A DNA stretch of 64,000 bases, from contig DAINQB010000002.1 in assembly GCA_036743175.1 (NCBI GenBank), positions 26,757 to 90,756 of the forward strand. Direction: 5' to 3'. The first letter of the stretch is position 1, and the number at the start of each line of letters is the position of its first letter. The position numbers and the translations under genes are program-made. Source of the stretch: Bacillota bacterium (lineage in GTDB: Bacteria > Bacillota > Clostridia > DUPQ01). Of the stretch, positions 12,899 to 34,170 are shown in pieces. Below the pieces are notes generated by a model. It did no database searches. It was given only the letters and a program-made list of their open reading frames with translations, and was not told the DNA's origin.

Positions 12899-12926
12899 TG
12901 AAAAAAGAGCCCCGGTACCGGGGCCC
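12899..12926 (-). terminator. intrinsic terminator of the carbamate kinase gene
   Basis: A 16-bp GC palindrome (GCCCCGGTACCGGGGC, 12909-12924) is followed on the minus strand by TTTTTT. Confidence 0.7.
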
Positions 12927-12941
12927 CATGATTGCTATAAG

Positions 12942-13892
12942 TCAGTGCGTGATAATTGTACCGGCTTCACCACGGATTGCCTTTTGCAGATTGTCGGGTG
13001 ATGTGATGATTGCTTTGCTTCCACCCTTTTCAAGGAACTGCAAAGCGGCTTCAATCTTGGGAAGCATGCTGCCCGGGGCAAAGTGTCCTTCATCTCTAAG
13101 CTTCTTCAGTTCCTTTACAGTGATTTCATGCAGCTTCAGTTCATTGGGCTTACCAAAATCTATACATACATTCTGTACAGCCGTCGAGATGATGAACACA
13201 TCGGCATTGAGAAGGTTCGCAAGCATTCCTGATGCATGGTCCTTGTCTATTACCGCATTTATTCCTGTGTAATGACTGTTCTCATCTATTGTCACAGGAA
13301 TTCCACCTCCGCCTACTGCAATTACTGTAAATCCGGACTTAACCAGCTTATCTATTGCGTCAATTTCGACTATGCTCTTTGGCATGGGTGAAGGAACAAC
13401 CCTTCTGTATCCCCTGTTGGAGTCTTCAATCACAACCCAGTCGGGATGGTCGTTTCTTATTTTTTCAATCTGCTCCGGTCCGTAGAATGAACCGATTGGT
13501 TTTGCAGGATTCTCAAAGGCCGGGTCATTGGCATCAACCTCAACCTGTGTAACGATGGTAACGGCATTTTTGACAATGTTCCTTCTGGCAAACTCATTGT
13601 GCAGCGCCTGCTGTATCTGGTATCCGAGTGCTCCCTGGGTATCTGCATCGCAGCTAACCAATGGAACGGGATGCATATGTTCAACTTCTTCGGCAATCTC
13701 GGAACGTCTCATTATGAATCCTACCTGAGGCCCGTTTCCATGGGTGACAACTACCTCATATCCCTCCTCAATCAGATCCACAATATAGCGGACCGTTTCA
13801 CATATCGCATCATATTGATCCGACACATTGACATGATCCTTGTCTCTTATCAGTGAGTTCCCGCCTATTGCAATGACGGCAAGTCTTGACAT
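12942..13892 (-). CDS. arcC: carbamate kinase
   Basis: The protein begins MSRLAVIAIGGNSL and has a carbamate kinase-like amino acid kinase fold over about 316 aa. It is adjacent to the ygeW-like gene. Confidence 0.9.
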   Translation of the reverse strand: MSRLAVIAIGGNSLIRDKDHVNVSDQYDAICETVRYIVDLIEEGYEVVVTHGNGPQVGFIMRRSEIAEEVEHMHPVPLVSCDADTQGALGYQIQQALHNEFARRNIVKNAVTIVTQVEVDANDPAFENPAKPIGSFYGPEQIEKIRNDHPDWVVIEDSNRGYRRVVPSPMPKSIVEIDAIDKLVKSGFTVIAVGGGGIPVTIDENSHYTGINAVIDKDHASGMLANLLNADVFIISTAVQNVCIDFGKPNELKLHEITVKELKKLRDEGHFAPGSMLPKIEAALQFLEKGGSKAIITSPDNLQKAIRGEAGTIITH

Positions 13893-13900
13893 AAAACCTC

Positions 13901-14884
13901 CTATTTGCCACCCATTGTCAGGGTCATAACCGCTTTTGCTGTATGCAATCTGTTTTCTGCCTCGTCATATACTATGGAATGGGGTCCGTCGATTACGGAA
14001 TCCACAACTTCATTGCCTCTATCAGCAGGAAGTGCATGCATGTACATTACATCACGGCTTGCCAAGTCCATCATTTCCTCAGTACACTTCCATCCCCTGT
14101 AGGACTCAAGGAGGTCATCGACTACAGCTGTGCTTTGGTTGTTGACCCAGCTTCCCCAGTTCTTCGGAATGACAACATCCGCATCCTTGTATGCTTCCTC
14201 CATGTTGTGGGTTATCCTGAATTTACCATTGTTCAGCCTTGCATTTTCCTTTGCCTGCTCAATTGCCCAGTCAGGAAGGTCATAGCCTTCGGGATATGCC
14301 AGTGTTACATCCATGCCGTACCTCGGGAATAGGAGTGCCTGTGTCAGCGGGACAGATATCGGCTTCTTATGACTTGTTGCATAAGCCCAGATTATTGAAA
14401 CCTTCAGGTTCCTTGTAGTCTCGGTTTTCTCCTTTATGGTCATGAGGTCCGCAATTCCCTGCATCGGATGATAAATGTCGCACTGCAGGCTCATAATGGG
14501 AACCGTTGCATGTTCTGCCATGCCTCTGAGATATTTGTTCCCAACTTCCCAGTAACAGTTCCTGCATGCAATGGCATGACCATATCTTGAAAGAATAATT
14601 GCCGTATCCTTTGCTGATTCCCCATGGGATATCTGCATGGTGCTTGTATCAAGGAAGTTTGCATGTCCTCCAAGCTGCGCAATACCGGCTTCCATGGAAT
14701 TCCTTGTCCTCGTGGACTGTTCAAAGAACATGAGGAACATGGTCTTTCTAAGGAGATATGGAGTATCAAGGCCCATGGCGTATTTTCTCTTCAAATCGAA
14801 GGATACGTCCAGGAGCGTGTCCAGTTCTTCCTTGTTCCAGTCCTGCAATGTTATGAAATGCTTCCCTTTGAATTCTGTTTTCAT
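13901..14884 (-). CDS. ygeW: YgeW-like carbamoyltransferase (ornithine/aspartate carbamoyltransferase superfamily)
   Basis: The STRTR carbamoyl-phosphate motif and an HPxQ motif are present. The start was chosen at MKTEFKGKHFITL, which has a GAAGGGGA RBS. It is next to arcC and the ygeY-like gene. Confidence 0.85.
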   Translation of the reverse strand: MKTEFKGKHFITLQDWNKEELDTLLDVSFDLKRKYAMGLDTPYLLRKTMFLMFFEQSTRTRNSMEAGIAQLGGHANFLDTSTMQISHGESAKDTAIILSRYGHAIACRNCYWEVGNKYLRGMAEHATVPIMSLQCDIYHPMQGIADLMTIKEKTETTRNLKVSIIWAYATSHKKPISVPLTQALLFPRYGMDVTLAYPEGYDLPDWAIEQAKENARLNNGKFRITHNMEEAYKDADVVIPKNWGSWVNNQSTAVVDDLLESYRGWKCTEEMMDLASRDVMYMHALPADRGNEVVDSVIDGPHSIVYDEAENRLHTAKAVMTLTMGGK

Positions 14885-14897
14885 ATAATCTTCCCCT

Positions 14898-16103: not shown

Positions 16104-16123
16104 CTGTATGTCCTCCGCTTCAC

Positions 16124-17476
16124 TCAGCGCATCTTCAAGATCATTTCATCATAGTGTTTGATCTTATTATATTCATCGTCCCAGAAATCCTGGCTTTTCA
16201 TGGAATCCATATATTCCTTAGTATATCCGAAAGGAATCCAGTCCCTTTCCTTCTGGTCAAAGAGCTGCTGCTTCTTTTCCGGCCTTCTGAAATCATAAAT
16301 ATCTTCCATGTCGGCCTTGTCGAAGATATCACGTTTCCATCTTCTTAGAACGAAATCCTCTGTTTCAAGCGAACGCCTGTCAAGATCTTCTATTACGGAA
16401 TCATACCGGTCAAAGCCATCCGTTGCAATGGTTACAACGTTGTCACCGGGGCCCAGTCTCAGGAACTTGGCCATCTTGATTGCACCTATTATATTACAGA
16501 TTCCGGAAACACCGAACTTGTCCCTGAGATACAGGGCTGTATCCATCGGTATCCCGGATTCAACCAGTATATCCGTTCCGTCATGTATTACCTTAAGGCC
16601 TTTTACAGAATCATCATCATGTATAAGAACTACAAAGTCTGTATTCAGTACATTGTGGATAAGGGTGCACATTTTATCACCGATTCCTTCAATGCGATGC
16701 TGGCCTCTTCCTCCGTTGGTCAGGGTTGAGCACTCATAAGGTTCAAGGGCTGCAACCTTTGCTTCGGGGAATGCATTCTTGATTTCATCACCTGCGGCTA
16801 TGGTTCCTGCTGAACCCGGTGCGCTTGCAAAACATGCTATTCTTCCATTCCCGATTCCTTTTACGGCTTCAATGGCCGAATTACCGGTAACATATCTGTG
16901 GAACCTGTAGTTTGGAAGCAATTCAAACTGGGCAAGGCTCCTGTTCTTTGGTTCCTTCATCAACTCATATGTTCTTTGAAGTGTCAGAATTACATCGGAT
17001 TCCGTTCCTGGAGTGAGGTCAAGTTTTGCTCCGTATTTCTTAATACGGTCGTAGCGTTCCTTGCTCATATTGTCTGGCATGATTACTATTGAATCATATC
17101 CCATCAGATTGCATATATATGAGACTCCGATTCCGAAATTTCCTGTGGAAGGGCCCAGAATCGTATGCTCACCGGGAAGAATCGTTCCATCTACACAACC
17201 TTCTATCAATGTGGAATATGCAGGGCCGACCTTGTGTGAACCTGATGGAAAATATTTCCCCAGCATTACCACAATATTGGCATCTACGCCGGTCAGTTCC
17301 TGCGGAAGCACCACCTTCATCACACTGTTGTCTTCATCCTTCCAGGTAATGTTGAAGAGATTGATGGGATCCAGTTCGTTTTCCCTGGCCCCCAAAGCCC
17401 TGGCCTTGACACCGGGATCGATTTTATCCCTTTCAAGCATTTCCTCATAAGTAGGTCCAAAAGGTATCTTGTTCAT
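16124..17476 (-). CDS. PLP-dependent enzyme, tryptophan-synthase-beta (fold type II) superfamily, with an N-terminal extension
   Basis: The likely PLP-lysine block is SGSHKVG, followed by Gly-rich loops ([10 protein letters not shown]). The start was chosen at MNKIPFG, which has an AGGAGG RBS. Confidence 0.65.
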
Positions 17477-17496
17477 GTATATCCTCCTATGGATGT

Positions 17497-18729
17497 TCAT
17501 TCATCCATGTATTTTTCCAATTCCTTCATGTCAGGTTCCATATAAATAGGTTTTCCGGCAGCCTTCATGACATTCTTTACATCCTTCAAACCATTTCCCG
17601 TCACTATAGTACAAACTGATTCACCGGGCTTTATTATTCCCATTTCCACTGCAGCCTCAACGCCTGCATATCCAGTGGCTCCTGCGGGTTCTGCAAATAT
17701 ACCTTCTTCTTTTCCGAGAAGATTCATGGCTTTCAATATATGCTGGTCTGATACAGCCACCCATTCCCCCTTTGATTTTTCCACTGCATTCATGGCCTTG
17801 ACCGGGTTTCTGGGTATTCCAACCGATATACTGTCTGCTATTGTGTTTTCTTCGGCTTTCCTGAGTAGTTCATGGTTTATTGCTGCAGTGACAAAAGGGC
17901 TGCATCCATCTGACTGAACTCCCAGAATCCTTGGGATTCTGTCAGTTATTCCAAGTTGAAGCAAATCGAAAAAGCCCTTGTATACACCGGCAATCGTGCA
18001 ACCGTCCCCTACTGAAACCGCCACCCAATCGGGAACATTCCATCCAAGTTGTTCTGCGATTTCAAGTGCAACTGTCTTTTTACCTTCCACGAGGTGTGGA
18101 TTGATTGCTGCATTCCTGTTGTACCATCCCCATTTATCTATCGCCGCCTTTGAAAGGTTGAAGGCATCACCATAATCTCCCCTGACCACGATTACCCTTG
18201 CCCCGAACAATAAAAGTTGTGCGAGTTTTCCTTCGGGAGCTCTTTCCGGCACGAAAATGACCGTCCGAAGTCCCATCCTGGCTGCATTTCCAGCCAATGA
18301 TGATGCTGCGTTTCCCGTTGAACTGCATGCGATTGTGTGGTTTTTGGTTTCAATGGCACCGGCCACAGCAACTGCAGACGCCCTGTCCTTCAATGAAGCC
18401 GTCGGATTGATCCCATCATCTTTTATATATAGATTCTTTATTCCAGTATGTGCCATGATCCTGTTTGCCTTGTAAACAGGGGTCCATCCTACACGCAGGA
18501 ACTCAGAGGATCTTGATAAATCAACGGAAATCAAGGGACTGTACCGGAACATTGACAAATCCCTGTTCCGGATAAAATATTCCCTGCCCATGATTTTTTT
18601 GATTGCTGTATAGTCAAATACGACATCAAGGATTCCTTTTTCTCCGCAGGACCTGCAGGTGAAGATTCCTTCATCCTTTCCATATTCCCTGCCACACAGT
18701 GTACACCGGAAACCCTCAATATATGTCAC
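17497..18729 (-). CDS. threonine synthase-like PLP enzyme with N-terminal zinc ribbon
   Basis: An N-terminal CTLCG..CRSCG zinc ribbon is present. The SLKDRAS PLP-lysine motif resembles the threonine synthase and cysteine synthase families. Confidence 0.7.
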   Translation of the reverse strand: MTYIEGFRCTLCGREYGKDEGIFTCRSCGEKGILDVVFDYTAIKKIMGREYFIRNRDLSMFRYSPLISVDLSRSSEFLRVGWTPVYKANRIMAHTGIKNLYIKDDGINPTASLKDRASAVAVAGAIETKNHTIACSSTGNAASSLAGNAARMGLRTVIFVPERAPEGKLAQLLLFGARVIVVRGDYGDAFNLSKAAIDKWGWYNRNAAINPHLVEGKKTVALEIAEQLGWNVPDWVAVSVGDGCTIAGVYKGFFDLLQLGITDRIPRILGVQSDGCSPFVTAAINHELLRKAEENTIADSISVGIPRNPVKAMNAVEKSKGEWVAVSDQHILKAMNLLGKEEGIFAEPAGATGYAGVEAAVEMGIIKPGESVCTIVTGNGLKDVKNVMKAAGKPIYMEPDMKELEKYMDE

Positions 18730-18807
18730 ACATTACTCCTTATATCAGTTTAACGAAATTAAACATGTTTAGTGCCATTAAATTCTATCACAACTGATAT
18801 TCTTTTA

Positions 18808-20529: not shown

Positions 20530-20530
20530 A

Positions 20531-21915: not shown

Positions 21916-22382
21916 AATCCCCTCCCCCTTTCTGCAGCCCGCAGAACCGCTGTGACAATCATGTTGTATCCTGTACATCTGCAAAGATTCCCTGAAAGCG
22001 CATCACGTATTTCTTCTTCAGTTGGATTGGGGTTCTTGTTCAGTAGCGATTCCGTTGCAATTACCATTCCGGGAATACAAAAACCACACTGTACGGCACC
22101 TTCATCTTCATATGCACCATGGATGACCCTGTATCTTTCAGTCTTTGAAAATCCGTCTATGGTGACAATGTCCTTTCCAATGGCATTGCCAACAGGCATA
22201 AGACATGAACTTACAATCTCGTTGTCAACCAGAACCGAGCAGGCTCCGCATTCACCTTCTCCGCAGCCTTCCTTCACACCCGTAAGTCCGAAATCCTCCC
22301 TTAGCACATCCAGAAGTCGTTTCGTGGGATCAACATCAATGGTTACATTTTCACCATTCAAAACAAATTTAATCTCTGTCAT
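21909..22382 (-). CDS. xdhC: molybdenum hydroxylase [2Fe-2S] subunit (XdhC/CoxS-like), triad 1
   Basis: Two 2Fe-2S motifs are present: CGEGECGACSV and CGFCIPGM...CRCTGY. Confidence 0.9.
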   Translation of the reverse strand: MTEIKFVLNGENVTIDVDPTKRLLDVLREDFGLTGVKEGCGEGECGACSVLVDNEIVSSCLMPVGNAIGKDIVTIDGFSKTERYRVIHGAYEDEGAVQCGFCIPGMVIATESLLNKNPNPTEEEIRDALSGNLCRCTGYNMIVTAVLRAAERGRGLW

Positions 22383-24465
22383 TTTCCAATAGCTCCATTA
22401 TGTATTCCGGCGTTGCCGGTATCTTCATGACATTTCTGTCGATTGCATTTTCAATAGCCAGTGCAACCGCAGGTGCTCCTCCGACAAGGGGGAGTTCCCC
22501 GGCACCCTTTGCTCCATATGGTCCAAGGGGAAAAGGATTGTCCATTATAACTGATTCAACGGGAGCACTGTCACATGCTGTGGGAATTATATAATCCGTG
22601 ACATTCCGCTGTCTCAGCTTCCCGTCCTTTGCATCCATTACTTCAATGGTTCCATATGCAACACCCTGGAGCAAACCACCTTCTATCTGACCTATGATGA
22701 TTCTTTCATCAATTGCCTTTCCTACATCATAGACTCCCCAGAGTTTTTTGACAGTAACCTCATACGTTGCCCTGTCCACCTCAACCTCAGCAACATTGAC
22801 ACCCCATGAATATGCCGGATAGGCATCCCCCGTAAGGGTTTCATCGTCCCACTCAACATAATCAGGTTGTCTGTATCTTTCCTCAACAAGGATTTCCTTT
22901 CCGTCAATCCATTGTTCCTTGAGTTTCAATGCAGCCCTTGCAATCAATCCGCCTACAACCATAATTGTCCTTGAGGCAACGGTAGGTCCTGAATCAGGAA
23001 CCAGGTCGGTATCCGGATTGTTGTAAATCACTCTGTCCACGGGAATTTCCAGTATCCCCGCGGCTATCTTTCTAAGTGTTGTAAATGCACCCTGGCCCAT
23101 TTCGGTGTTTGCTGCCAGAACGGTAACGGTATCATCCTTGTTCTTCTGAAGCCTGACGACTCCCTTTATGTGTTTTTGTTCACCGCTCCCCGTAAAACCG
23201 CAGCCATGGAGGAACCAGGACATCCCAATACCTCTGAAATCACCCGGTTTCGAATATTCCATGACCTTTTCCCTGTAACCGGAAATTTCCATGACCTTTT
23301 CAATCATTTCATTCATTATGATGGGATCCCTGAATTTACCTCCCGTGGATGTTGCATCCCCTTGTCTGGCAAGGTGCCTCTTTCTGAATGCCAGGTTATC
23401 TTCACCCAGTTCCTTCGCAATATGATTGATGAACATCTCAATGGCAAAGAACATCTGTGGTGCTCCGAATCCCCTGAAGGCTCCGTTTGGAACTGTGTTT
23501 GTTTCATATACATCACCGGAGACGCTTAAATTGTCAATTGTATAGACCCCGCTGGCGGCAATCATTGCCCTTTGGAGCACAACACCAGAAAGACCTATAT
23601 ATGCACCGCTGTCCAATGAAACATGAACCCTCATTGCACTTATGTTGTTGTCCCCGTCGATGGCTGCCTGGAATTTAATAAGGGAAGGATGTCTTTTGGT
23701 GGTTGATTCAATGTCTTCGACCCGGTCATATATGAGTCTTACAGGTCTGCCGGTCTTCATTGATGCCACTGCAACCTGGCAGCCTATCAAAGATGGGAAC
23801 TCCTCCTTGCCGCCGAATGCCCCGCCGGTTGCTGCCTGTTGGATCCTTACCTTGTCAGGCTCCAGTCCCATGGCCTGTACCACGGCATTCTTTATATAGT
23901 ATGGGCATTGCATGGACCCGATTACCGTGGATTTACCATCTTCAAAGATCCCGATTATACCCTGGGGTTCAAGATATATATGTTCCTGATACCCAGTCCT
24001 GTATTCACCGTTGACAATGCGTTTGTCCCCGGCGAAATATTCATCTGCATTCCCCTTTTCATAGTCATAATGAACTACACTTTTAACATAATCAAATTCA
24101 GGAACCAAGGGCTCGTACTCTACTTTTATCCCTTCTACTATTTCCCTGATTACCCCTCTGTCCTCACCGACTACCATAAGAATCGGTTCTCCTATGTACC
24201 TGACCTCTTCCTCAGCAAAGACAGGCATATCGTCAAAGATTATCTTCACCCTGTTCCTTCCGGGTACATCATTTCGGTCAATGATGTAATATCCATCGGG
24301 AATCTCCGGAAACCTGATTTCCCTGATCCTGGCCCTTGCCATGGTCGACCGAAGGGTCCTTGCGTGAAGTGCGCCTTCAACCTTCATATCGCCTATATAC
24401 TCAATGCTTCCGGAAGTCTTTCCATATGTATCAAGTTTGTTTATAGGTCTGCTGATATCATTCAT
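22369..24465 (-). CDS. xdhA: molybdopterin-binding large subunit of xanthine dehydrogenase-family hydroxylase, triad 1
   Basis: The a/b hammerhead and MoCo-binding domains are present, including the GGAFGGKE motif. The start was chosen at MNDISRP, which has an AAGGAGG RBS. Confidence 0.9.
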   Translation of the reverse strand: MNDISRPINKLDTYGKTSGSIEYIGDMKVEGALHARTLRSTMARARIREIRFPEIPDGYYIIDRNDVPGRNRVKIIFDDMPVFAEEEVRYIGEPILMVVGEDRGVIREIVEGIKVEYEPLVPEFDYVKSVVHYDYEKGNADEYFAGDKRIVNGEYRTGYQEHIYLEPQGIIGIFEDGKSTVIGSMQCPYYIKNAVVQAMGLEPDKVRIQQAATGGAFGGKEEFPSLIGCQVAVASMKTGRPVRLIYDRVEDIESTTKRHPSLIKFQAAIDGDNNISAMRVHVSLDSGAYIGLSGVVLQRAMIAASGVYTIDNLSVSGDVYETNTVPNGAFRGFGAPQMFFAIEMFINHIAKELGEDNLAFRKRHLARQGDATSTGGKFRDPIIMNEMIEKVMEISGYREKVMEYSKPGDFRGIGMSWFLHGCGFTGSGEQKHIKGVVRLQKNKDDTVTVLAANTEMGQGAFTTLRKIAAGILEIPVDRVIYNNPDTDLVPDSGPTVASRTIMVVGGLIARAALKLKEQWIDGKEILVEERYRQPDYVEWDDETLTGDAYPAYSWGVNVAEVEVDRATYEVTVKKLWGVYDVGKAIDERIIIGQIEGGLLQGVAYGTIEVMDAKDGKLRQRNVTDYIIPTACDSAPVESVIMDNPFPLGPYGAKGAGELPLVGGAPAVALAIENAIDRNVMKIPATPEYIMELLENDRD

Positions 24466-24476
24466 GGAAACCTCCT

Positions 24477-25550: not shown

Positions 25551-25553
25551 AAA

Positions 25554-26816
25554 TCAGCTCCTGTTCAATCTGTCCCACAGTTTACCTGCGGTTTTTACTG
25601 CTTTTACAATTTCCTCGTTTGCAACGGTGCTGCAAATACAGTTCTCAACAATCCTCTTTCCGTTCTTCCATACATCTGCCGGTTTGAGGCTGCCGGACAA
25701 TCCAAAAAGGATATGCCCGAATGCATTGCTTTCATCCATTGGTGAAATGGGTTCATAGCAGACCTTGATGATATCTGCATCATAACCTTCCTTTATACGC
25801 CCAATTTTCAATCCCATATATTCATTCATATACTTATAATTTTCATTCACCAATTCAAGAAGTCCGCCAAGACCGAAGGCAACAGGGGAACTGTACTTAT
25901 GTTTCATTGCCAGCAGCAGGCTCATCCATTCAGATGCTATTCCCATCGACATGCCGTCATTTCCTATAAGACACCGGACATTATGCTTTTTCAACATTCT
26001 GACATCAGGCAGTCCGACAGCATTGTTCATGTTTGACTGAATGTTGAGTGCCACATAACATTGGTTCTTCGCTATAAGGTCTGCTTCATCCTCATTTATG
26101 TGTATGCAGTGGGATAGAATCGATCCCTTGTTCAGAAGTCCGAAATCATAAAGCCTTTGGACAACTCTCATGCCGTGATAATCCATGCAGCTTTCCTGGT
26201 CAAGCCAGCTTTCCGCTGCATGTATATGAATGGGTCTGTTTCCAAGCACCTTCTTCACTTTTTCAAGGGTTTCATCCGAAAGGGACATTGAAGCATGAAG
26301 TCCGAACATATCACCGTTTTCAAGGTTTTCGGCAATGCAGTCATCAATATCAAACCGGTCGCTGGTCTCAAAACAAAGTGAACCCGTAAGTCCCGCCTTT
26401 TCAAATGCAGATTTTATCAATCCAAGTGAGCCCCTGATGTATCCGCTGGCATGATGGTCAATTACAGTGGTAACCCCGTTCAATAAGTACTCACGGGCAG
26501 CCGTCAGTGCGCTGTAATAAATATCATCCTTTTCAAGATGCGAATCTATCTTCCACCAAAGCTGGTCAAGCAGTTCCTGGAAGTTTGCAGGGTTGAACGG
26601 AAGGGCCAGTCCCCGTGAAAAGGTTGAATAGATGTGTGTATGGGCTACGGTAAGACCGGGCATGACCAGCGCTCCCCGGCAATCAGTTATATCGTATCCT
26701 TTGTCCCTGAAGGTCTTCATGTCCCCGACCATTTCTATTTTTTCATCAAATACAACAAAACCATTTTCAATATAGTTTTCAAAGTCATATATCCTTGCAT
26801 TTGTCAGAGCAAACAT
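25554..26816 (-). CDS. ssnA: SsnA-like amidohydrolase (chlorohydrolase/aminohydrolase family)
   Basis: An amidohydrolase fold with an HxH motif (TVAHTHIYS). It occupies the conserved position of ssnA in purine-catabolic clusters. Confidence 0.7.
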   Translation of the reverse strand: MFALTNARIYDFENYIENGFVVFDEKIEMVGDMKTFRDKGYDITDCRGALVMPGLTVAHTHIYSTFSRGLALPFNPANFQELLDQLWWKIDSHLEKDDIYYSALTAAREYLLNGVTTVIDHHASGYIRGSLGLIKSAFEKAGLTGSLCFETSDRFDIDDCIAENLENGDMFGLHASMSLSDETLEKVKKVLGNRPIHIHAAESWLDQESCMDYHGMRVVQRLYDFGLLNKGSILSHCIHINEDEADLIAKNQCYVALNIQSNMNNAVGLPDVRMLKKHNVRCLIGNDGMSMGIASEWMSLLLAMKHKYSSPVAFGLGGLLELVNENYKYMNEYMGLKIGRIKEGYDADIIKVCYEPISPMDESNAFGHILFGLSGSLKPADVWKNGKRIVENCICSTVANEEIVKAVKTAGKLWDRLNRS

Positions 26817-28120
26817 TTTCCGTTTCCTCCTTTCAGTAATTCATTCTCTATTACAAACTGACCCTTTGACATTACTGAAACCACCTTTATCATGGATGCA
26901 AATACTCCTGAACCCTGTCTGTAAATGGAATAATCCGAGGCCGAATGGTCATCTTTCTTCAGATAAGGACCATTGTCATCAATTATCACAAGGTCAGCAT
27001 CGGATTCCTCCCGGATCACTCCCTTCCTGGGGTAAAGTCCGAAGATCCTGGCAGGGTTCTCGCTCATCCTGTCAATGGCATCGTTTCCCAATAATCCATA
27101 CATTACAGTGAAGGAATATTCCACGGAACCAACTCCCATAGGTATGTCAATCAGGTTTTCCCTTTTCTTTTCAGCTCTCATATATGCGCAGTGATCGGTT
27201 CCGATTGTTTCTACAAACATAACATTGTTCAACAGCAATCCCTGTGCACGATGACTGCGAAGAGGAGGTATCATTGTATAGAGGTAACCGTCGGCATTGT
27301 CATATTCATGAAGGTTGAAATAAAAATAGTGCGGACAGCTCTCAATGTGAAATTTATCTCCAAGGAGATGGGGATATCTGCTTGCCAGGGCCCGTACCGT
27401 ATGACCGCTGCTGACATGAACCATATAAAGGTTCCCGCCTGTTTCCTCAGTCATTTTCGCAAGGGACAGTGCCTCGGATATCTCAGCTTCCTCATTCCGG
27501 GCATAGGTGATGTCCCATACTTTATGCCCCGGCATTATTCCGACCATGTTGTCGTTCTCTGCATGGACAAGGAGAGTGAAACCAAGTTCCTTTGAAAGAC
27601 CCAGGAGTTCATATATCTCCCTGGTATATGTCCGTCTGCCTGATTCTGAATATGTTGTGAATATCTTTATTGAATCCAGGCCCATTGATTTCGATGCCTT
27701 TGTCAGTTCCCTGGTATGACCGACGGGATTTGCAAGAGTTGCATGGAATTTATAATCAACCACACTTTTTGAAGCAAGATCCATTCTTTTCTCAAGGGCT
27801 TTTTCCAGGTCATCTGCCTTTGATACGGGATCCAGGAAATCAATGAATGTGGTTATACCACCGAATGCGGCTGAAACCGAACCTGTATGAAAATCATCAC
27901 ATGACACTATGTTCCCTGTGTCAAGTTCAAAGTGAACATGGGGGTCAATGAGCCCGGGAATTATCTTCTTACCCTTTGCGTTGTATGTTTTCCTGCATGG
28001 CAACTCGTCACTGTCAATGCGTTTTATAACATCTCCATCAACATAGATATTGACTTTCCTGAATGCCCTGTCTATATAAGCCAGACCACCCAATATACCA
28101 AAATCATACAAATCTCTCAC
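26804..28120 (-). CDS. hyuA: dihydropyrimidinase/hydantoinase family cyclic amidohydrolase (HyuA/YgeZ-like)
   Basis: The HxH motif is GLIDPHVHFE, and the length and architecture are hydantoinase-like. Confidence 0.85.
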   Translation of the reverse strand: MRDLYDFGILGGLAYIDRAFRKVNIYVDGDVIKRIDSDELPCRKTYNAKGKKIIPGLIDPHVHFELDTGNIVSCDDFHTGSVSAAFGGITTFIDFLDPVSKADDLEKALEKRMDLASKSVVDYKFHATLANPVGHTRELTKASKSMGLDSIKIFTTYSESGRRTYTREIYELLGLSKELGFTLLVHAENDNMVGIMPGHKVWDITYARNEEAEISEALSLAKMTEETGGNLYMVHVSSGHTVRALASRYPHLLGDKFHIESCPHYFYFNLHEYDNADGYLYTMIPPLRSHRAQGLLLNNVMFVETIGTDHCAYMRAEKKRENLIDIPMGVGSVEYSFTVMYGLLGNDAIDRMSENPARIFGLYPRKGVIREESDADLVIIDDNGPYLKKDDHSASDYSIYRQGSGVFASMIKVVSVMSKGQFVIENELLKGGNGKCLL

Positions 28121-28592
28121 CTGTTTCCACTATTTCTATATCTGCGAATCCGTATTTTGCAACTACCTCCTGCAGATTGGTGTCCCTTACAACCAGGACG
28201 GCATCAATGCCTGAATCCGCAATTTTCACAACCGTTTCGTGAAAGCACAAACCTTCAAGCTCAAGGGACCCAATTTCATCAAGGAAAATCGTTCCCACTC
28301 CGCTTTTTATCATCAGGTCAACCCCTGTGCTTACCACGGAAACCGCCTCCCCGGAAAAACTATATGGTCCCAGTGAGCAACTCTCATCCCATTTGGAAGG
28401 CAGTGCGTATTTTCTTCTGGCAAGGGGTATCCTTTCCCCTGATGACAACCTTATCAAATCAAATCCGATTACGATGTCATCATTCATCAATTTCACAGAG
28501 GCAAACCCATCACCATTTTCGCAACGCCTGTATTCATCCATAAGCCTGGTGGTCTTTCCTGAATGAATGGGACCTGTTATCAATGTGATCAT
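28104..28592 (-). CDS. P-loop NTPase, THEP1/MobB-like (putative cofactor-maturation accessory NTPase)
   Basis: Walker A reads GPIHSGKTT and Walker B reads IFLDEIGSLELEG. The protein is small at 162 aa and lies beside an XdhC-like gene. Confidence 0.55.
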   Translation of the reverse strand: MITLITGPIHSGKTTRLMDEYRRCENGDGFASVKLMNDDIVIGFDLIRLSSGERIPLARRKYALPSKWDESCSLGPYSFSGEAVSVVSTGVDLMIKSGVGTIFLDEIGSLELEGLCFHETVVKIADSGIDAVLVVRDTNLQEVVAKYGFADIEIVETGERFV

Positions 28593-29404: not shown

Positions 29405-29411
29405 GCGTCTC

Positions 29412-30035
29412 CTAAACCAGAAGCTGTATTCCAAGCGCAGCAGCCAGAAGTACCGGTGCATATATGGGCCTGAACTTCGCTTTTATACTTGTCCTTGCTT
29501 CCAGGAGCAGTACACCGTATACAAGGACTGCACTCAGCAAGCCGTTCAAAATCACAAACTCCAGTGTAAGGGCAGGTGATGAAATGAATTTTGTCATACT
29601 GCCCGACACCAGGAACTGTGCAACCATATAGAGTATATATCCAAGCCTCCAGCCCATGCTCACACCAATGCTTCCTGTTATTCTTGCAAACTGTTTTTTG
29701 CTGCTGAGCATTGGAATGGCAACAGCTACAACCAATGACTCAAACATTATTGATATCATCGGGTTTATTGTCTTGAATACGCTGATTCCCGGAAGCAGGA
29801 AGTCAACTGCCTTTATTCCGGCCGCAACCAGTCCAACCAGAACAAGTGCTGACCTTGAGCCTGTTGCCTTGAAGGCTTTCATAAGTATGTACACCGCAAT
29901 CGGGAACATTACAAGACCGGCCACCAAAGGCGGGAGAAAGTGCAGCAGATACCCAAGTGATGCTTCTGCCAACCCCCAAACAGCTCCAAAAAACACAATC
30001 TGTGCCGCAAGTTTCATTATCTTCTTCATACTCAT
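29412..30035 (-). CDS. polytopic membrane protein, ECF-transporter S-component-like
   Basis: A 207-aa protein with 5-6 TM helices and no ABC partner nearby. It is embedded in the purine cluster. Confidence 0.45.
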   Translation of the reverse strand: MSMKKIMKLAAQIVFFGAVWGLAEASLGYLLHFLPPLVAGLVMFPIAVYILMKAFKATGSRSALVLVGLVAAGIKAVDFLLPGISVFKTINPMISIMFESLVVAVAIPMLSSKKQFARITGSIGVSMGWRLGYILYMVAQFLVSGSMTKFISSPALTLEFVILNGLLSAVLVYGVLLLEARTSIKAKFRPIYAPVLLAAALGIQLLV

Positions 30036-32356
30036 TTCTTATCTCCTTCTTGCCTTGTTTTCATTATTCCGGTCAGAATCTTCTCGCCTGTGACCGGCAG
30101 GGAATTTATCCTGACTCCCGTAGCATTGTATATTGCATTTGTTATGGCAGCAGGTGGTGTGTCTATTCCGATTTCTCCGACTGATTTTGCACCAAAGGGT
30201 CCCGACGACTCATAACTTTCTGCGAACTCAACCTGTATTTTTTTGATTTCCTTCCTTGTCGGAATCCTGTAGGTCATCATGTTGTTTGTTATCATCCTGC
30301 CTGAGTTTGAGTAAACCACATCCTCGTAGAGAGTCATTCCTATGCCCTGTACAAGACCTCCTTCAACCTGCCCTTTTGCCAGGTTGGGACTTATGGTTGT
30401 TCCACAGTCAACCACCGCAACATAGTCCATGAGTTCCACCTGTCCTGTTTCAGTATCAACTTCCACTTCTGCAAACCCGGCCATGAAAGGCGGCGGTGAC
30501 TTTGTTCCCACATATGAATCAACGGCCACAAGCTGTTTCTGGTCTTCATTGTAGTAAAGCCTGTTGGAAAGATCCCTAAGTGATATGGATTTGTCGCCAT
30601 GGCTTATTGTATCACCATCAAAGTCAGTTCCTTCCACCGGAACCTTCAGGGCATGGGCTCCTTCTTCGATTATCATCTGTTTCATCTTTTCAGAAGCTTT
30701 TATGACTGCATTACCGGAAACATATGTCGTACTGGAAGCATATGCTCCTGTATCAAAGGGTGTAAGGTCTGAATCAGAAGAGTAGATTACTATTTTGTCA
30801 GGATGCACACCAAGACTTTCAGCTGCTATCTGCGCAAGTATGGTGTCACTGCCCTGGCCGATTTCCGTTGCCCCGACCATAAGATTGAAGAATCCATCAT
30901 CATTGAGTTTTATCATTGCAGAGCCCATGTCAATGTATGGAATTCCTGAGCCCTGCATTGCAATGGCCATACCTACGCCCCTGACCTTTCCATTGCCCAT
31001 ATCTTTCCTTGGATATTTGCTGTTCCAGTCAATGAGCTCCATTCCCCTTTCGATACAGTAATCCAGTTTGCAGGTTTCCATTATCATGGCGGTTCCTTCG
31101 GTTCCTTCACCCATGATTTCAAATATTGGGGATGTCTCACCTTCTTGTATCATGTTCTTCTGTCTGAACTCCACCGGACTCATCCCAATCTTATGGCAAA
31201 GGACATCTACTGCAGACTCAAGGGCATAATTGCCCTGGATTGCACCATAGCCCCTGAATGCACCTGCCGGTGTCCTGTTGGTATATACTACTTTTCCACC
31301 GAAACGGATTGAGTCAACCTTGTTGTAAAGGGGAAATACCTTTGAGCCTGCAACCATGAATACCGTAAGAGCATGCTCTCCATAGGCTCCGGTATCGGAT
31401 AACACTTCTACATCAATTGCCTTCAGTGTTCCATCCTTCATTGCACCGAGTTTGATGTCAAATCTCATGGGATGCCTTGAGAAGGTTGACTCAAAAACTT
31501 CCTGCCTTGTATAAACCATCTTGGAAGGTTTGCCTGTCCTAAGGGTCACAGCAGATACAAGCATTTCTCCATGTACGCACTGTTTGCCTCCGAATCCTCC
31601 GCCGACCCTTGGTTTTATTACCCTTATCTTGCTCATCGGATACGAAAGCGCTTCGGCAACTATCCTTCTCGTGTGGAAGGGTGTCTGTGTTGATGAATAG
31701 AGAACAAGTCTTCCCGTATAGTCCATTCTTGCATTGACTGTGTGGGGTTCCATCATTGTATGAGCCTGGGCCTGGGTGTAAAACGTCGTTTCAACGACTG
31801 TATCACATTCCTTCAGTGATTTTTCCACATTCCCGACATGCATAAGGTATGCCGCAGCTACGTTCTTCTTTGGTTCAAACCCTATGGGAAACATTTCATG
31901 TATTTCCGGTTCATCATGGATTATGGTTTTGTTTTCATAAGCTTTTTCAAAGTCCAGAACAGGTTCAAGTACTTCATAATCCACTACCAGAAGTTCCAGT
32001 GCCTTTTCAGCGGTTTCCCTGTCTATGGCTGCAACAGCCGCAACTTCATCACCCACATGCCTTACAAAGTTATCAAGTACAAATTTGTCATGCGGTGACG
32101 GTTCGGGATATCCCTGGCCTGCCCTGGTTACAGGTATTCTTTTGAAGTCTTCATAGGTAAGGACCAGTTCGACACCTTCAAGGGCCTCGGCCTTTGATTT
32201 ATCTATTGATTTAATCCTGGCAAACGCATGGGGACTTCGAAGAACCTTGACAATGAGGGAATTCTGTTCCGCAAGATCATCAGTATAACCCGGCTTTCCC
32301 ATCATAAGGCCTTTTCCGTCGATGGATGGTCTTTCATAATTTACATATTTCATCAT
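30032..32356 (-). CDS. molybdopterin-binding large subunit of xanthine dehydrogenase-family hydroxylase, triad 2
   Basis: The a/b hammerhead and MoCo domains are present, including GGGFGGKQ. The start was chosen at MMKYVNYERPSIDG, which has a GGAGGTGG RBS and forms an ATGA overlap with the upstream [2Fe-2S] gene. Confidence 0.85.
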   Translation of the reverse strand: MMKYVNYERPSIDGKGLMMGKPGYTDDLAEQNSLIVKVLRSPHAFARIKSIDKSKAEALEGVELVLTYEDFKRIPVTRAGQGYPEPSPHDKFVLDNFVRHVGDEVAAVAAIDRETAEKALELLVVDYEVLEPVLDFEKAYENKTIIHDEPEIHEMFPIGFEPKKNVAAAYLMHVGNVEKSLKECDTVVETTFYTQAQAHTMMEPHTVNARMDYTGRLVLYSSTQTPFHTRRIVAEALSYPMSKIRVIKPRVGGGFGGKQCVHGEMLVSAVTLRTGKPSKMVYTRQEVFESTFSRHPMRFDIKLGAMKDGTLKAIDVEVLSDTGAYGEHALTVFMVAGSKVFPLYNKVDSIRFGGKVVYTNRTPAGAFRGYGAIQGNYALESAVDVLCHKIGMSPVEFRQKNMIQEGETSPIFEIMGEGTEGTAMIMETCKLDYCIERGMELIDWNSKYPRKDMGNGKVRGVGMAIAMQGSGIPYIDMGSAMIKLNDDGFFNLMVGATEIGQGSDTILAQIAAESLGVHPDKIVIYSSDSDLTPFDTGAYASSTTYVSGNAVIKASEKMKQMIIEEGAHALKVPVEGTDFDGDTISHGDKSISLRDLSNRLYYNEDQKQLVAVDSYVGTKSPPPFMAGFAEVEVDTETGQVELMDYVAVVDCGTTISPNLAKGQVEGGLVQGIGMTLYEDVVYSNSGRMITNNMMTYRIPTRKEIKKIQVEFAESYESSGPFGAKSVGEIGIDTPPAAITNAIYNATGVRINSLPVTGEKILTGIMKTRQEGDKK

Positions 32357-32802
32357 TCCACCTCCAGGTATGCTTTTATGGCCCTGTGCTGGCCCTGATA
32401 CCCTGAACATCTGCAAAGGTTGCCCACAAGATATGACCGTATGTCATCATCAGTCGGATTCACAAGTTCCTTCTTCATTGCATATATAGTAAGGGCCATG
32501 GATGGATTGCAGTATCCGCACTGGTCTGCACCTTCCCTGCCAAAACAGTCTGCTATCTTTGCAGCTTCTTCAGGAATACCTTCGACTGTGGTTACTTCCT
32601 TACCTTCGGTCCTGCACGCCAGATAACTGCATGATGCCACCGGAGCTCCGTCAACCAGAACCGTACATACTCCGCAGGACGTATTGTCACAGCCCCTTCT
32701 TACACTTACATAATTGTTTTTTCTGAGTGTATCAAGCAGATATTCATCAGCCTTTACATCAAACACCTTGTTTTCACCGTTTACCTTCAGTCTGACCTTC
32801 AT
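32353..32802 (-). CDS. molybdenum hydroxylase [2Fe-2S] subunit, triad 2
   Basis: Two 2Fe-2S motifs are present: CDNTSCGVCTV and CGYCNPS...CRCSGY. Confidence 0.9.
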   Translation of the reverse strand: MKVRLKVNGENKVFDVKADEYLLDTLRKNNYVSVRRGCDNTSCGVCTVLVDGAPVASCSYLACRTEGKEVTTVEGIPEEAAKIADCFGREGADQCGYCNPSMALTIYAMKKELVNPTDDDIRSYLVGNLCRCSGYQGQHRAIKAYLEVE

Positions 32803-33593
32803 GACATCACCTCCCGCAGTCCTCTTTTTACAAGGGCTTCACAGAGCTTCTTTCTGTATGCTGCAGAACCCCGGGAATTGCTTCCGAACTTTATCTCCGC
32901 TGCAGCTGTTGCAGCAGCCCTTTCAGCGCAATCAGCATCATGTTTTCCACATGTGTCAACGTATGCCATTGCCATTTCCGCAAGAACCGCCTTGTATGGT
33001 CTGGAACCTACGGCAATCTTTGTTTTTCCATCTATACGGGTTACAGCTGCATTCAGTATCGGGAAATCGATTGCAGTAATCTTGATGGTTTCATACCATC
33101 CCCTGCCTTCCTTCATGGGAATCCTGACCTTAAGAAGAATGTCCCCTGATTTTGCAGTCTCATCCATGAACTCGACAAGGCTTACCCTGCCTCTTTTGTA
33201 AAATTCAAGTTCAGTGTCCAGGACCATAAGTGGAGTAATCAAATCCGAGAAACCATACTTGCCGGAAATTGTTCCGCCTATTGTAGCGATGTTTCTTACG
33301 GTTACCCCCATGATCTTTTCTACTGCAGTGCAGACAATCCCATTGCACAATGCTTTCACAATATCGCTTTTTTCTACCTGTCTCAGTGTTGTCATTGAGC
33401 CGATTTCAACAAATCCATCAACTACATCAATGGAATCAAGGCCAAGGCCCGAAAGGTCGACTGCTTCGTCAACTTCCGTCGGTGTAAGCCTGAGCCAGGC
33501 CCCCCCTGCGATTATTGCAGCCTTGCTGTTACCCTCCAGGATTGAATATGCTTCTTCGACAGAGCTGACCTTAACATAATTATTTATTTTCAA
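32799..33593 (-). CDS. molybdenum hydroxylase FAD-binding subunit, triad 2
   Basis: An FAD-binding PCMH-type domain (AGGAWL, ATIGGTISG). Confidence 0.85.
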   Translation of the reverse strand: MKINNYVKVSSVEEAYSILEGNSKAAIIAGGAWLRLTPTEVDEAVDLSGLGLDSIDVVDGFVEIGSMTTLRQVEKSDIVKALCNGIVCTAVEKIMGVTVRNIATIGGTISGKYGFSDLITPLMVLDTELEFYKRGRVSLVEFMDETAKSGDILLKVRIPMKEGRGWYETIKITAIDFPILNAAVTRIDGKTKIAVGSRPYKAVLAEMAMAYVDTCGKHDADCAERAAATAAAEIKFGSNSRGSAAYRKKLCEALVKRGLREVMS

Positions 33594-33600
33594 GCCTGTT

Positions 33601-34170
33601 TCATCTCCCCTCTGCTTTTTTTCTTATTTCAAAAAGATCCTCCGGCGTATCAACATCCAGAAGGATTCCTTCATCATCAACATCAATATATTCAACATTC
33701 TGCATGTCCCTGAAAACCTTGAGGTTTGAATCAATTGGCTCCCGGAGCAAGGGTGCTATAAGGTTTTGTCTTATCAGTACAGGATGTCCCTTTCTTCCAT
33801 TGTATACGGGGACAATCATTTCGCCGGTCCCATCCATAAGCTTATGGTATGTTTCTTTTCCTATCAGTGGATAATCCCCCGGGACCAAAAAGAAATCATG
33901 ATTCATTTCACTGACTCCACGTTTAACAGAACTAAACATTCCACTATCGTAATCTTCGTTGACAACCATTGTAACATTTGGGTATTTTTTGATGATAAGG
34001 GCCGTGGATTCCCGGTGATGACCGGCTACTACCACTATTTGGCCGCAGATTTCCGTAAGAGTGTCCAGAACTCTCCCAAGAACGGTGCTGCCACCAATGG
34101 TCATTGCCATTTTGTCAGAACCCGCGCGGCTTGAGTATCCTGCCGCCAAAACTACGGAATCATACTGCAT
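33601..34170 (-). CDS. mocA: MobA-like NTP transferase (molybdenum cofactor cytidylyl/guanylyltransferase, MocA-like)
   Basis: The N-terminal nucleotide-binding motif is LAAGYSSRAG.DK. The protein is 189 aa and has a GGAGG RBS. It is the first gene of the long minus-strand cluster. Confidence 0.8.
   Translation of the reverse strand: MQYDSVVLAAGYSSRAGSDKMAMTIGGSTVLGRVLDTLTEICGQIVVVAGHHRESTALIIKKYPNVTMVVNEDYDSGMFSSVKRGVSEMNHDFFLVPGDYPLIGKETYHKLMDGTGEMIVPVYNGRKGHPVLIRQNLIAPLLREPIDSNLKVFRDMQNVEYIDVDDEGILLDVDTPEDLFEIRKKAEGR

Follow-up and report, generated by a model that had tools for sequence, protein, structure and literature searches.

A conserved 20-gene cluster of a Clostridia-lineage Bacillota bacterium probably encodes a YgeX-less variant of anaerobic reductive purine degradation

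In a 64,000-nucleotide (nt) stretch of the genome of a Bacillota bacterium from the class Clostridia (contig DAINQB010000002.1 of assembly GCA_036743175.1, positions 26,757 to 90,756; hereafter, the window), 20 genes on the minus strand (12942-34170) probably constitute a single operon for the complete anaerobic, reductive degradation of purines, following a variant of the 2,8-dioxopurine pathway and including helper proteins for cofactor maturation. A preliminary description of the same DNA had recognized a gene cluster for purine/urate catabolism, of the YgeY/SsnA/hydantoinase type and with 2 molybdenum (Mo) hydroxylases, which is supported by Pfam and NCBIfam assignments, by BLAST comparison with the Escherichia coli cluster, and by the published pathway. 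While this general interpretation is right, the pathway itself is now known. What is new here is a widespread configuration that lacks YgeX, the use of subfamilies scoring below curated thresholds for most steps, and 2 uncharacterized pyridoxal 5'-phosphate (PLP) enzymes, one of which is very strongly conserved.

A co-directional cluster of 20 genes and its proposed pathway

Anaerobic degradation of urate and purines has been explained only between 2023 and 2025, based on E. coli, Clostridium sporogenes, and Clostridioides difficile, and anaerobic urate degradation is being pursued for probiotics against gout. The reductive 2,8-dioxopurine pathway of uric acid degradation was reconstituted enzyme by enzyme in 2 studies from 2025 (Li et al., Life Metab, PMC12507026; Liu et al., bioRxiv 10.1101/2025.04.24.650524), so that its earlier characterization as still incompletely resolved is out of date. 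In the reconstituted pathway, urate is reduced to 2,8-dioxopurine by a homolog of xanthine dehydrogenase (XDH), which is XdhD-YgfM in E. coli and the selenium-dependent XdhAC in C. sporogenes (PMC12507026; 10.1101/2025.04.24.650524), and 2,8-dioxopurine is dearomatized by YgfK, whose place in C. difficile is taken by the PydA-like UacX (PMC12507026). SsnA and HyuA then open the rings to give 2,3-diureidopropionate, YgeW and YqeA convert one ureido group into ATP, YgeY takes the other ureido group off, and YgeX converts 2,3-diaminopropionate to pyruvate and ammonia (PMC12507026; 10.1101/2025.04.24.650524), although the 2 studies disagree about the order in which the ureido groups are removed. 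Of the 2 Mo enzymes in the described pathway, one oxidizes hypoxanthine and xanthine to urate and the other, operating in reverse, strips the C6 oxygen from urate.

The listing of open reading frames (ORFs) shows a continuous, head-to-tail run on one strand from mocA (34170) to arcC (12942), as had been described before, and Joint Genome Institute (JGI) gene calls for an identical stretch of a 92.5-kb metagenome contig (Ga0116244_10000262, sample 3300010350) place 20 genes in it (Table 1). The previous count of 21 genes has to be corrected accordingly, and the list that came with it also adds up to 20. Where neighboring genes do not overlap, the gaps between them do not exceed 78 nt, and the run is framed by a promoter candidate and a terminator-like hairpin. 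The genes on either side are unrelated to the cluster, being a uroporphyrinogen decarboxylase (URO-D)-like gene and, on the opposite strand, a DUF4143 ATPase gene. No Rfam family was matched at gathering thresholds in a scan of the whole window, in which purine, xanthine, and other riboswitches were sought; therefore, no known riboswitch is present.

Families were assigned with Pfam and with the curated equivalog cut-offs of NCBIfam, and the proteins of the E. coli cluster were compared by BLAST. Nearly all of the previously given gene labels were borne out by these models, including MocA, the Mo hydroxylase subunits, XdhC, the THEP1-like protein, the XRE-cupin protein, and adenine deaminase. 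Four proteins passed curated equivalog thresholds: carbamate kinase, YgeY, adenine deaminase, and, formally, a "threonine synthase". A candidate for the dearomatizing reductase (YgfK or UacX) was found in a protein that combines PF01180 with 2 4Fe-4S domains, which is the same architecture as that of C. difficile UacX, the replacement of YgfK in that organism (Li et al., PMC12507026). The SsnA-like protein reached 347 bits on NF005540 (cut-off 444) and 300 bits on TIGR03314 (cut-off 455), with the next family at 117 bits, while the HyuA-like protein scored 243 bits on TIGR02033, its best family, against a cut-off of 393. The orphan membrane protein of 207 amino acids (aa) has the fold of a small S component of energy-coupling factor (ECF) transporters with about 6 helices (RibU, FolT, BioY, ThiT, YkoE).

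The carbamoyltransferase had been labeled YgeW, which holds in part. It is not a member of either YgeW model (188 bits versus a cut-off of 453 for NF005538 and 170 versus 500 for TIGR03316), and it also fails the models for ornithine carbamoyltransferase (OTC; 253 bits versus 281). An alignment revealed, however, that YgeW-specific motifs are kept (QxxHGE, NLQCDxxHPxQ, WAYxxSxxKPxSVP, DWxCTEEMM, and YMHxLPAD), while the 3 insertions and the C-terminal tail of YgeW as well as the DxxxSMG motif of OTCs are missing. The protein thus represents a short, YgeW-related form that is likely isofunctional with YgeW. The ATP-yielding carbamate kinase step that had been suggested for this cluster is supported by the pairing of carbamoyltransferase and carbamate kinase, in line with family models and the pathway studies.

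Based on these assignments, the following route can be proposed. Adenine would be deaminated to hypoxanthine by adenine deaminase (step 1), which the canonical XDH candidate Mo1-FeS1-FAD1 would oxidize via xanthine to urate (step 2), and the XdhD-like Mo2-FeS2-FAD2 would reduce urate to 2,8-dioxopurine by taking off the oxygen at C6 (step 3). The latter would be dearomatized by the UacX-type flavin mononucleotide (FMN)/Fe-S reductase (step 4), after which the SsnA-like hydrolase is predicted to open the six-membered ring to ureidomethyl-hydantoin (step 5) and the HyuA-like hydrolase to open the hydantoin to 2,3-diureidopropionate (step 6). The short carbamoyltransferase would then phosphorolyze one ureido group to carbamoyl phosphate, from which carbamate kinase would form ATP (step 7), and YgeY would hydrolyze the remaining ureido group to leave 2,3-diaminopropionate (step 8). 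The final step is the least certain: the ThrC-like enzyme, standing in for YgeX, may convert the C3 amino acid to pyruvate and ammonia (step 9a), and the CysK-like enzyme may break or exchange the C-beta-N bond of a beta-N-substituted alanine, i.e., diaminopropionate or beta-ureidoalanine (step 9b). The MocA-like, XdhC-like, NTPase, and ECF-S-like proteins would serve the supply or insertion of the Mo cofactor, or possibly the uptake of substrate or cofactor, and the XRE-cupin protein is the likely regulator.

Table 1. Features of the cluster and its flanks, in 5' to 3' order on the minus strand. Bit scores are given against the curated cut-off of the respective model; identities are from BLAST.
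Feature	Coordinates	Strand	Basis and remarks
Sigma-70-like promoter candidate	34275..34303	-	5' of mocA; TTGAAA-17-TATACT, 10/12 consensus matches; consensus match only
MocA-like Mo-cofactor cytidylyltransferase, 189 aa	33601..34170	-	PF12804; TIGR03310 134 bits vs 186; 27% identical to E. coli MocA
Flavin adenine dinucleotide (FAD) subunit of Mo hydroxylase 2 (FAD2), 264 aa	32799..33593	-	PF00941 + PF03450; best E. coli matches YgfM and, about equally, XdhB
2x[2Fe-2S] subunit of Mo hydroxylase 2 (FeS2), 149 aa	32353..32802	-	PF00111 + PF01799
Mo subunit 2 (Mo2), XdhD-like, 774 aa (JGI call; ORF extends to 32416)	30032..32356	-	Best E. coli match XdhD
Orphan membrane protein, ECF-transporter S-component fold, 207 aa	29412..30035	-	
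XdhC-family Mo-cofactor insertion/maturation protein, 271 aa	28589..29404	-	PF02625 + PF13478; 28% identical to N-terminal half of YqeB
NTPase_1 (THEP1-like) P-loop protein, 162 aa	28104..28592	-	PF03266
HyuA-like cyclic amidohydrolase, 438 aa; candidate ureidomethyl-hydantoin hydrolase	26804..28120	-	Best family TIGR02033; 29% identical to E. coli HyuA
SsnA-like amidohydrolase, 420 aa; would open the ring of the reduced purine	25554..26816	-	Best family NF005540; 30% identical to E. coli SsnA
UacX-type reductase, dihydroorotate dehydrogenase (DHODH)/PreA-like FMN domain + two 4Fe-4S, 357 aa	24477..25550	-	PF01180 + Fer4
Mo subunit 1 (Mo1), canonical XDH candidate, 698 aa (JGI call)	22369..24465	-	Xanthine oxidoreductase structures closest
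2x[2Fe-2S] subunit of Mo hydroxylase 1 (FeS1), 157 aa	21909..22382	-	PF00111 + PF01799; 48% identical to E. coli XdhC
FAD subunit of Mo hydroxylase 1 (FAD1), 283 aa	21064..21915	-	PF00941 + PF03450; best E. coli match XdhB
XRE-helix-turn-helix (HTH)/cupin regulator, PuuR-like architecture, 178 aa	20531..21067	-	PF01381 + PF07883
Adenine deaminase, 569 aa	18808..20517	-	TIGR01178 646 bits vs 472
ThrC-like PLP enzyme with N-terminal 4-Cys ribbon, 410 aa	17497..18729	-	TIGR00260 219 bits vs 167
CysK-like PLP enzyme, 458-aa ORF	16124..17500	-	PF00291 only; homologs begin at Met9 (position 17476), giving 450 aa
YgeY M20 hydrolase, ureido-diaminopropionate decarbamoylase, 401 aa	14898..16103	-	TIGR03526 711 bits vs 321; 73% identical to E. 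coli YgeY
Short YgeW-related carbamoyltransferase, 327 aa (gene call; ORF extends to 14941)	13901..14884	-	PF02729 + PF00185; 37% identical to E. coli YgeW
Carbamate kinase, 316 aa	12942..13892	-	TIGR00746 375 bits vs 358; NF009007 443 bits vs 266; 47% identical to E. coli YqeA
Intrinsic-terminator-like hairpin	12906..12927	-	Directly 3' of arcC; 9-bp stem with 7 GC pairs, then TTTTT

Conservation and variants of the cluster

A genome scan with the CysK-like protein as query and 1 genome per species yielded at least 562 confirmed matches, 80 of which were fetched with flanks of up to 10 kb and, together with 3 loci from contig look-ups, resulted in a set of 83 loci (L numbers in the following). 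Metagenomes were scanned with the HyuA-like protein as query, and this set is hence blind to the PLP genes. Most of the 83 fetched loci carry a ThrC-like gene (74), YgeY (63), and a carbamoyltransferase (64, of which 54 are of the short form and 10 are true YgeW), and SsnA-type and HyuA-type hydrolases were found in 44 each.

The recurring gene order is MocA-FAD2-FeS2-Mo2-S component-XdhC-NTPase-HyuA-SsnA-UacX-Mo1-FeS1-FAD1-(XRE)-Ade-ThrC-CysK-YgeY-carbamoyltransferase-(ArcC), and its carriers include Vallitalea okinawensis, several genomes of Clostridia and Izemoplasmatales, and numerous metagenome contigs. Many of the latter reproduce the upstream half of the window order, from MocA-FAD2-FeS2-Mo2-S component-XdhC-NTPase onward. 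The full 20-gene order was assembled from 2 overlapping sets of loci, with no fetched locus covering all 20 genes because the flanks were limited to 10 kb. Among the matches listed, the closest relatives are Clostridia metagenome-assembled genomes (MAGs), and among named organisms, V. okinawensis is the closest one to share the order of the downstream half. The trio of S component-like, XdhC-like, and NTPase genes recurs in more than 20 loci, and the XRE-cupin gene is present in the Clostridia-type relatives but missing from the Izemoplasmatales-type ones. The cluster had been ascribed to gut anaerobes; the named relatives of this variant, however, come mainly from the environment, as MAGs or isolates (Clostridia, Vallitalea, Izemoplasmatales, Moorella, Peptococcaceae), and the configuration is widespread among Bacillota of sediments and the subsurface as well as among DNA-degrading Izemoplasmatales.

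Furthermore, a minimal cluster is found in Thermanaeromonas, Moorella, and Neomoorella (L003, L014, L015, L041, L042, L058, L084). It consists of an XRE-type regulator, in some cases yqeC, a CysK-like enzyme, a fused enzyme of the TIGR03311 "selenium-dependent XDH" type, a ThrC-like and a HyuA-like enzyme, with an EamA transporter in L003. The regulator is an XRE-cupin protein in most of these loci and a short HTH-only protein in L003; the TIGR03311 type was confirmed for L003 and L042 (1406-1490 bits) and is deduced from synteny for the others. Neither SsnA, the reductase, nor YgeY was found within 10 kb of the minimal clusters. A hybrid type, represented by L019, L026, L038, L040, and L044 (Peptococcaceae, Desulfitobacterium, Desulfosporosinus), comprises an XdhABC resembling that of E. 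coli (about 51% identity; in L038, it passes NF007426), ygfK, uacT, ssnA, and a sigma-54 ygeV-like regulator together with a CysK-like gene and either a ThrC-like gene, YgeX, or both. Two of the hybrid loci, L038 and L044, contain a second, fused TIGR03311 enzyme.

Roles of the two molybdenum hydroxylases

Both Mo hydroxylases belong to uncharacterized subfamilies. Mo1 stays below all NCBIfam cut-offs, including those of pucD, XdhA, and XdhB, and its nearest solved structures are the bovine, human, and rat xanthine oxidoreductases (XORs; 240 bits). Structural work on XORs has defined a canonical active-site set, corresponding to Glu802, Arg880, Phe914, Phe1009, and Glu1261 of the bovine enzyme, and the equivalents of all 5 residues are kept in Mo1 according to both a HMMER alignment and a multiple alignment. 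Mo2 has retained E1261 alone and lacks the other 4 residues, as do XdhA and XdhD. Its nearest solved structure is 4-hydroxybenzoyl-CoA reductase, a reductive dehydroxylase, with which it groups together with E. coli XdhA and XdhD, and its best BLAST match in E. coli is XdhD (37% identity, 508 bits; XdhA, 405 bits). Moreover, a loop of about 11 residues containing the equivalent of XdhD Glu606 occurs only in Mo2, a Mo2-like ortholog, and XdhD among 10 aligned sequences, being absent from XdhA, Mo1, and the TIGR03311 type; Glu606 has been proposed to orient urate in XdhD (Li et al., PMC12507026). Mo2 is 63-79% conserved in syntenic contigs.

Because of the XOR relatives and the 5 residues of Mo1 on the one hand, and the grouping of Mo2 with XdhD and its Glu606 loop on the other, we consider it rather likely that Mo1 acts as XDH and Mo2 as the urate/2,8-dioxopurine enzyme. 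The active-site residues and the loop liken Mo1 to an oxidizing and Mo2 to a reducing enzyme, and since one of the two most likely hydroxylates and the other de-hydroxylates, the 2 successive ring hydroxylations suggested previously probably have the wrong direction.

Several observations weigh against this assignment and would fit the same pathway with exchanged roles, Mo1-FeS1-FAD1 being the urate/2,8-dioxopurine enzyme and Mo2 the XDH, which we regard as somewhat unlikely. Mo1 directly adjoins the UacX-like and SsnA-like genes inside the conserved core, and some related clusters have, beside ssnA-ygfK, a Mo1-type enzyme and no other Mo hydroxylase within 10 kb; Mo1, however, is also next to adenine deaminase, its presumed source of hypoxanthine. 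The 2,8-dioxopurine dehydrogenase (DOPDH) of clostridia appears to be of the fused TIGR03311 type, and the fused TIGR03311 enzymes of related clusters (1330-1490 bits), whose architecture is that described for the C. sporogenes DOPDH, fall on the Mo1 side of the family with pucD and XOR and not with XdhD, TIGR03311 serving in this comparison as a proxy for the fused clostridial type and not as C. sporogenes XdhAC or C. difficile XdhD themselves. These enzymes keep 4 of the 5 XOR residues, including E802, R880, and F914, but lack F1009, so that the full substrate-binding set of Mo1 still sets it apart from them. The C. difficile "XdhD" shares only 25.6% identity with its E. coli namesake, and on the NCBIfam models, all of whose cut-offs it misses, Mo2 scores slightly better as XdhA (656 bits) than as XdhD type (585 bits), which contrasts with the 100-bit margin by which XdhD is its best E. 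coli match and with its XdhD-specific Glu606 loop, which XdhA-type enzymes do not have.

Two PLP enzymes at the position of ygeX

The assignment of Mo1 as XDH and of Mo2 as urate reductase leaves the end of the pathway, where the cluster departs from the described enzymes. No cluster protein scored above 26 bits on the diaminopropionate ammonia-lyase model, i.e., no YgeX was found. YgeX is a defining member of the known cluster, and the preliminary description had remarked neither on its absence nor on the 2 PLP enzymes as the unusual part. The ThrC-like and CysK-like PLP proteins, both 22-26% identical to YgeX, are encoded among the genes of the lower pathway, at the position held by ygeX in E. 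coli (e.g., hyuA-ygeW-CysK-yqeA-ThrC-ygeY). Where YgeY, a carbamoyltransferase, SsnA, and HyuA occur together (39 loci), a ThrC-like gene is present in 34 and YgeX in 4 cases (1 locus with both), and 2 loci have neither. Likewise, the PLP-blind metagenome set contains 18 loci with a ThrC-like gene and 5 with YgeX, never together. L104 and L109 carry the ThrC-like gene as sole PLP gene, without a CysK-like gene. This distribution suggests that the ThrC-like enzyme is likely a functional replacement of YgeX.

As a fold-type II PLP enzyme, the ThrC-like protein shares the PLP lysine and the S-T-G-N carboxylate-binding loop with ThrC, and it differs from ThrC by an added N-terminal ribbon with 4 Cys. 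We take the phosphate site for O-phosphohomoserine in Thermus thermophilus ThrC to be formed by Asn154, Ser155, and Arg160 together with the GNAGN loop. Arg160 (in the numbering of our alignment) is invariant in 4 solved ThrCs, within the motif N-S-x-N-P-x-R-x-E-G-Q-K-T, and the corresponding position is occupied by Leu in 66 and by Met in 4 of the 70 aligned members of the ThrC-like family. Ser155 is replaced by Ala, and the GNAGN loop by GDGC(T/S) in all 70. Since both Arg160 and the GNAGN loop are replaced throughout, we rejected an identity as threonine synthase despite the passed TIGR00260 threshold.

The second PLP enzyme had been described as TrpB-like; its NCBIfam scores and its best match in the PDB, CysK (107 bits), make CysK-like the more fitting label. 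It shares the PLP lysine and the S-T-G-N carboxylate loop with CysK, also of fold type II, but is extended by about 60 aa at the N-terminus and about 90 aa at the C-terminus. An identity as cysteine synthase was likewise rejected: the protein reaches 130 bits on CysK/CysM models with cut-offs of 344-351, and its lysine lies in the motif SGSHKVGP, invariant in the family, instead of SxKDR. A true role in threonine or cysteine biosynthesis was thus dismissed for both PLP genes. An AlphaFold2 model of the CysK-like protein from a 12-sequence alignment (mean predicted local distance difference test score of 61) was too poor for a fold search.

The CysK-like family is conserved to a high degree, with 74-94% identity across Clostridia, Izemoplasmatales, Moorella, and Peptococcaceae, and a mean column identity of 83% among 12 members from several lineages of Bacillota-related anaerobes and 1 MAG labeled Actinobacteria. 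Within the fetched loci, the median identity to the window protein is 76%, compared to 44-63% for most neighbors. Judged by these identities, the CysK-like protein is among the slowest-evolving proteins of the cluster. It may act additionally, and this is the least certain of our assignments, on a beta-N-substituted alanine. Possible reactions include a beta-elimination or replacement on beta-ureidoalanine or diaminopropionate, the rescue of a "wrong" mono-ureido isomer, and a stereo-inversion between the product of a D-specific hydantoinase and L-specific downstream enzymes.

Some findings speak against a role of the 2 enzymes at the pathway end and are more readily accommodated if they form a separate two-gene module that is simply carried along with the cluster, for example for sulfur/selenium handling of the cysteine/selenocysteine type or for the maturation of Mo enzymes, with YgeX encoded elsewhere; we judge this unlikely. 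Asp120 of YgeX aligns with Thr, neither PLP enzyme having an Asp at this position, and the region of Asp189 aligns ambiguously; therefore, the alignment lends no support to YgeX-like chemistry. A CysK-like gene and YgeX co-occur in 4 genomes, 2 of these without a ThrC-like gene, so the CysK-like role cannot simply be that of YgeX. In a few genomes, the pair is located away from purine genes, standing alone among housekeeping genes in 2 Bacillota MAGs (L018, 8714-11365; L021, 8710-11365), and in a Symbiobacterium MAG (L017, 9839-13002) the CysK-like gene adjoins the gene of inosine monophosphate dehydrogenase. In the Moorella-type loci and in L035, the neighbors of the CysK-like gene are yqeC, mocA, and yqeB as well as a Mo enzyme of the selenium-dependent type. 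In most loci, however, both genes are interleaved with those of the lower pathway, at the E. coli ygeX position, and the maturation genes of the operon analyzed here are grouped at its opposite end. The near mutual exclusion of ThrC-like and YgeX in related clusters and the 2 loci with ThrC-like as the only PLP gene further argue against an independent module.

Neither of the 2 pathway studies mentions a cysteine-synthase-like or threonine-synthase-like gene (PMC12507026; bioRxiv 10.1101/2025.04.24.650524), and a literature search pairing ygeY with cysteine- or threonine-synthase-like terms gave nothing relevant among the matches listed. Published neighborhood networks and surveys color any PF00291 gene as "YgeX" and would therefore have hidden the variant with 2 PLP enzymes. 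We tentatively put forward, as a possibility that we would not yet call probable, that the ThrC-like enzyme is a non-orthologous replacement of YgeX and the CysK-like enzyme provides an extra step beyond the 8 known enzymes, which would make up a new end of the reductive purine pathway. If so, the published pathway would be incomplete for most environmental anaerobes that carry it. Assigning the PLP enzymes would complete the pathway in these organisms, could settle which ureido group is removed first, and might give alternative, possibly simpler, parts for engineered urate degraders.

The purine assignment and its genomic context

The reading of the whole cluster as a purine operon has to be weighed against the scores of the SsnA-like, HyuA-like, and MocA-like proteins, the carbamoyltransferase, and both Mo subunits, all of which lie below the equivalog cut-offs, so that these proteins could act on other substrates than their E. 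coli counterparts. Also pointing away from it, selD, yqeB, and yqeC were not detected among the scanned ORFs of the window, a scan that did not cover 4 ORFs with 150 aa or more (59201-62696) and a 297-aa ORF at 47707-48600. In the NCBIfam scan, the XdhC-like protein matched no YqeB-family model. That the cluster serves another N-heterocycle, by reductive pyrimidine (Pyd) degradation, whose enzyme types the PreA/DHODH-like reductase and the dihydropyrimidinase-like hydrolase resemble and which sub-threshold homology would leave room for, or by the classical clostridial purine fermentation via formiminoglycine, is nevertheless highly improbable and was rejected on gene content and synteny, given an adenine deaminase that passes its equivalog threshold, 2 XDH-family enzymes, an SsnA-like protein, and a YgeY with 73% identity, given that genes for formiminotransferase, cyclodeaminase, or glycine reductase are lacking from the cluster and its flanks, and given a synteny that grades into clusters with bona fide ygfK, ssnA, ygeW, ygeX, and hyuA.

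An ECF module on the plus strand (6699-9810), located 3 kb from the operon, consists of a RibU-type S component, a fused double ATP-binding cassette ATPase, and a CbiQ-type T component, and could energize the orphan S-component-like protein of the operon. It is directly followed by 2 tandem genes for S-adenosylmethionine (SAM) hydroxide adenosyltransferases (SAM_HAT/DUF62; 9838-11528, plus strand). SAM_HAT enzymes free adenosine from SAM, and a link to the neighboring adenine-degrading operon is possible. On the minus strand, URO-D-family genes at 11531-12697, directly after the operon terminator, and at 49386-50420 show partial matches to the uroporphyrinogen decarboxylase fold.

On the opposite side, a 75-aa gene called by JGI (34169-34396, plus strand) lies between mocA and the divergent DUF4143 ATPase gene; without any Pfam match and overlapping the promoter region, it may be spurious. 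An ordinary block further upstream of the operon (37060-41723, minus strand) contains 2 LeuA/citramalate-synthase-like genes, ketol-acid reductoisomerase, and the small subunit of acetolactate synthase. Beyond it, a stretch of roughly 4 kb (42000-46000) has a GC content of 0.38 instead of about 0.44 and includes a 506-aa ORF without a Pfam match (43037-44557, minus strand). A radical SAM gene is located beside a fused LigB/Memo-AMMECR1 gene at 45439-47669 (minus strand), a pair that we take to be of the AmmeMemoRadiSam type, and the 297-aa ORF at 47707-48600 gave only a weak Pfam match.

Comparison with described purine degradation clusters

Loci of the same kind, from the same lineages as the variant described here, were reported by Wasmund et al. 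in 2021 (PMC8289736), who found purine deaminase genes beside XDH and accessory genes in loci that are alike in Izemoplasmatales and Clostridium. That study predates the pathway, and its text does not mention carbamate kinase, hydantoinase, diaminopropionate, or cysteine synthase, the downstream genes remaining unassigned.

The E. coli cluster (ygeW-ygeX-ygeY-hyuA-yqeA...ygfK-ssnA-ygfM-xdhD; PMC12507026) has in common with the window a candidate urate reductase of the XDH family that carries the Glu606 loop and is accompanied by an FAD subunit, SsnA- and HyuA-type ring hydrolases, carbamoyltransferase and carbamate kinase, YgeY, MocA, and a separate three-subunit XDH nearby. The 2 clusters differ in the reductase, which is of the UacX type (PF01180 and 4Fe-4S) in the window, where BLAST found no YgfK in the cluster, and the 1032-aa YgfK in E. 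coli; in the carbamoyltransferase, a short relative that fails the YgeW models in place of YgeW; and in the regulator, XRE-cupin instead of the sigma-54 activator YgeV. Furthermore, the window cluster lacks YgeX, YqeB, and YqeC, has the ThrC-like and CysK-like PLP enzymes, adenine deaminase, and the XdhC-like, NTPase, and ECF-S-like proteins in addition, and, in contrast to E. coli, has all genes on one strand in what is apparently a single operon.

The clusters of C. sporogenes and C. difficile (10.1101/2025.04.24.650524; PMC12507026) likewise come from Bacillota anaerobes. They differ from the window by the use of YgeX, and their urate reductase has been described as a fusion of the Fe-S and Mo parts that has no FAD subunit, whereas both Mo enzymes of the window have separate FAD subunits and NCBIfam detected no fused TIGR03311-type enzyme in the cluster. 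C. difficile, moreover, has the hydrolase UacY instead of a carbamoyltransferase, but it shares with the window the UacX-type reductase in place of YgfK. The window also matches the logic of C. sporogenes, with 2 Mo hydroxylases, one an XDH and the other a urate reductase, and, like most surveyed strains, would gain ATP through carbamoyltransferase and carbamate kinase.

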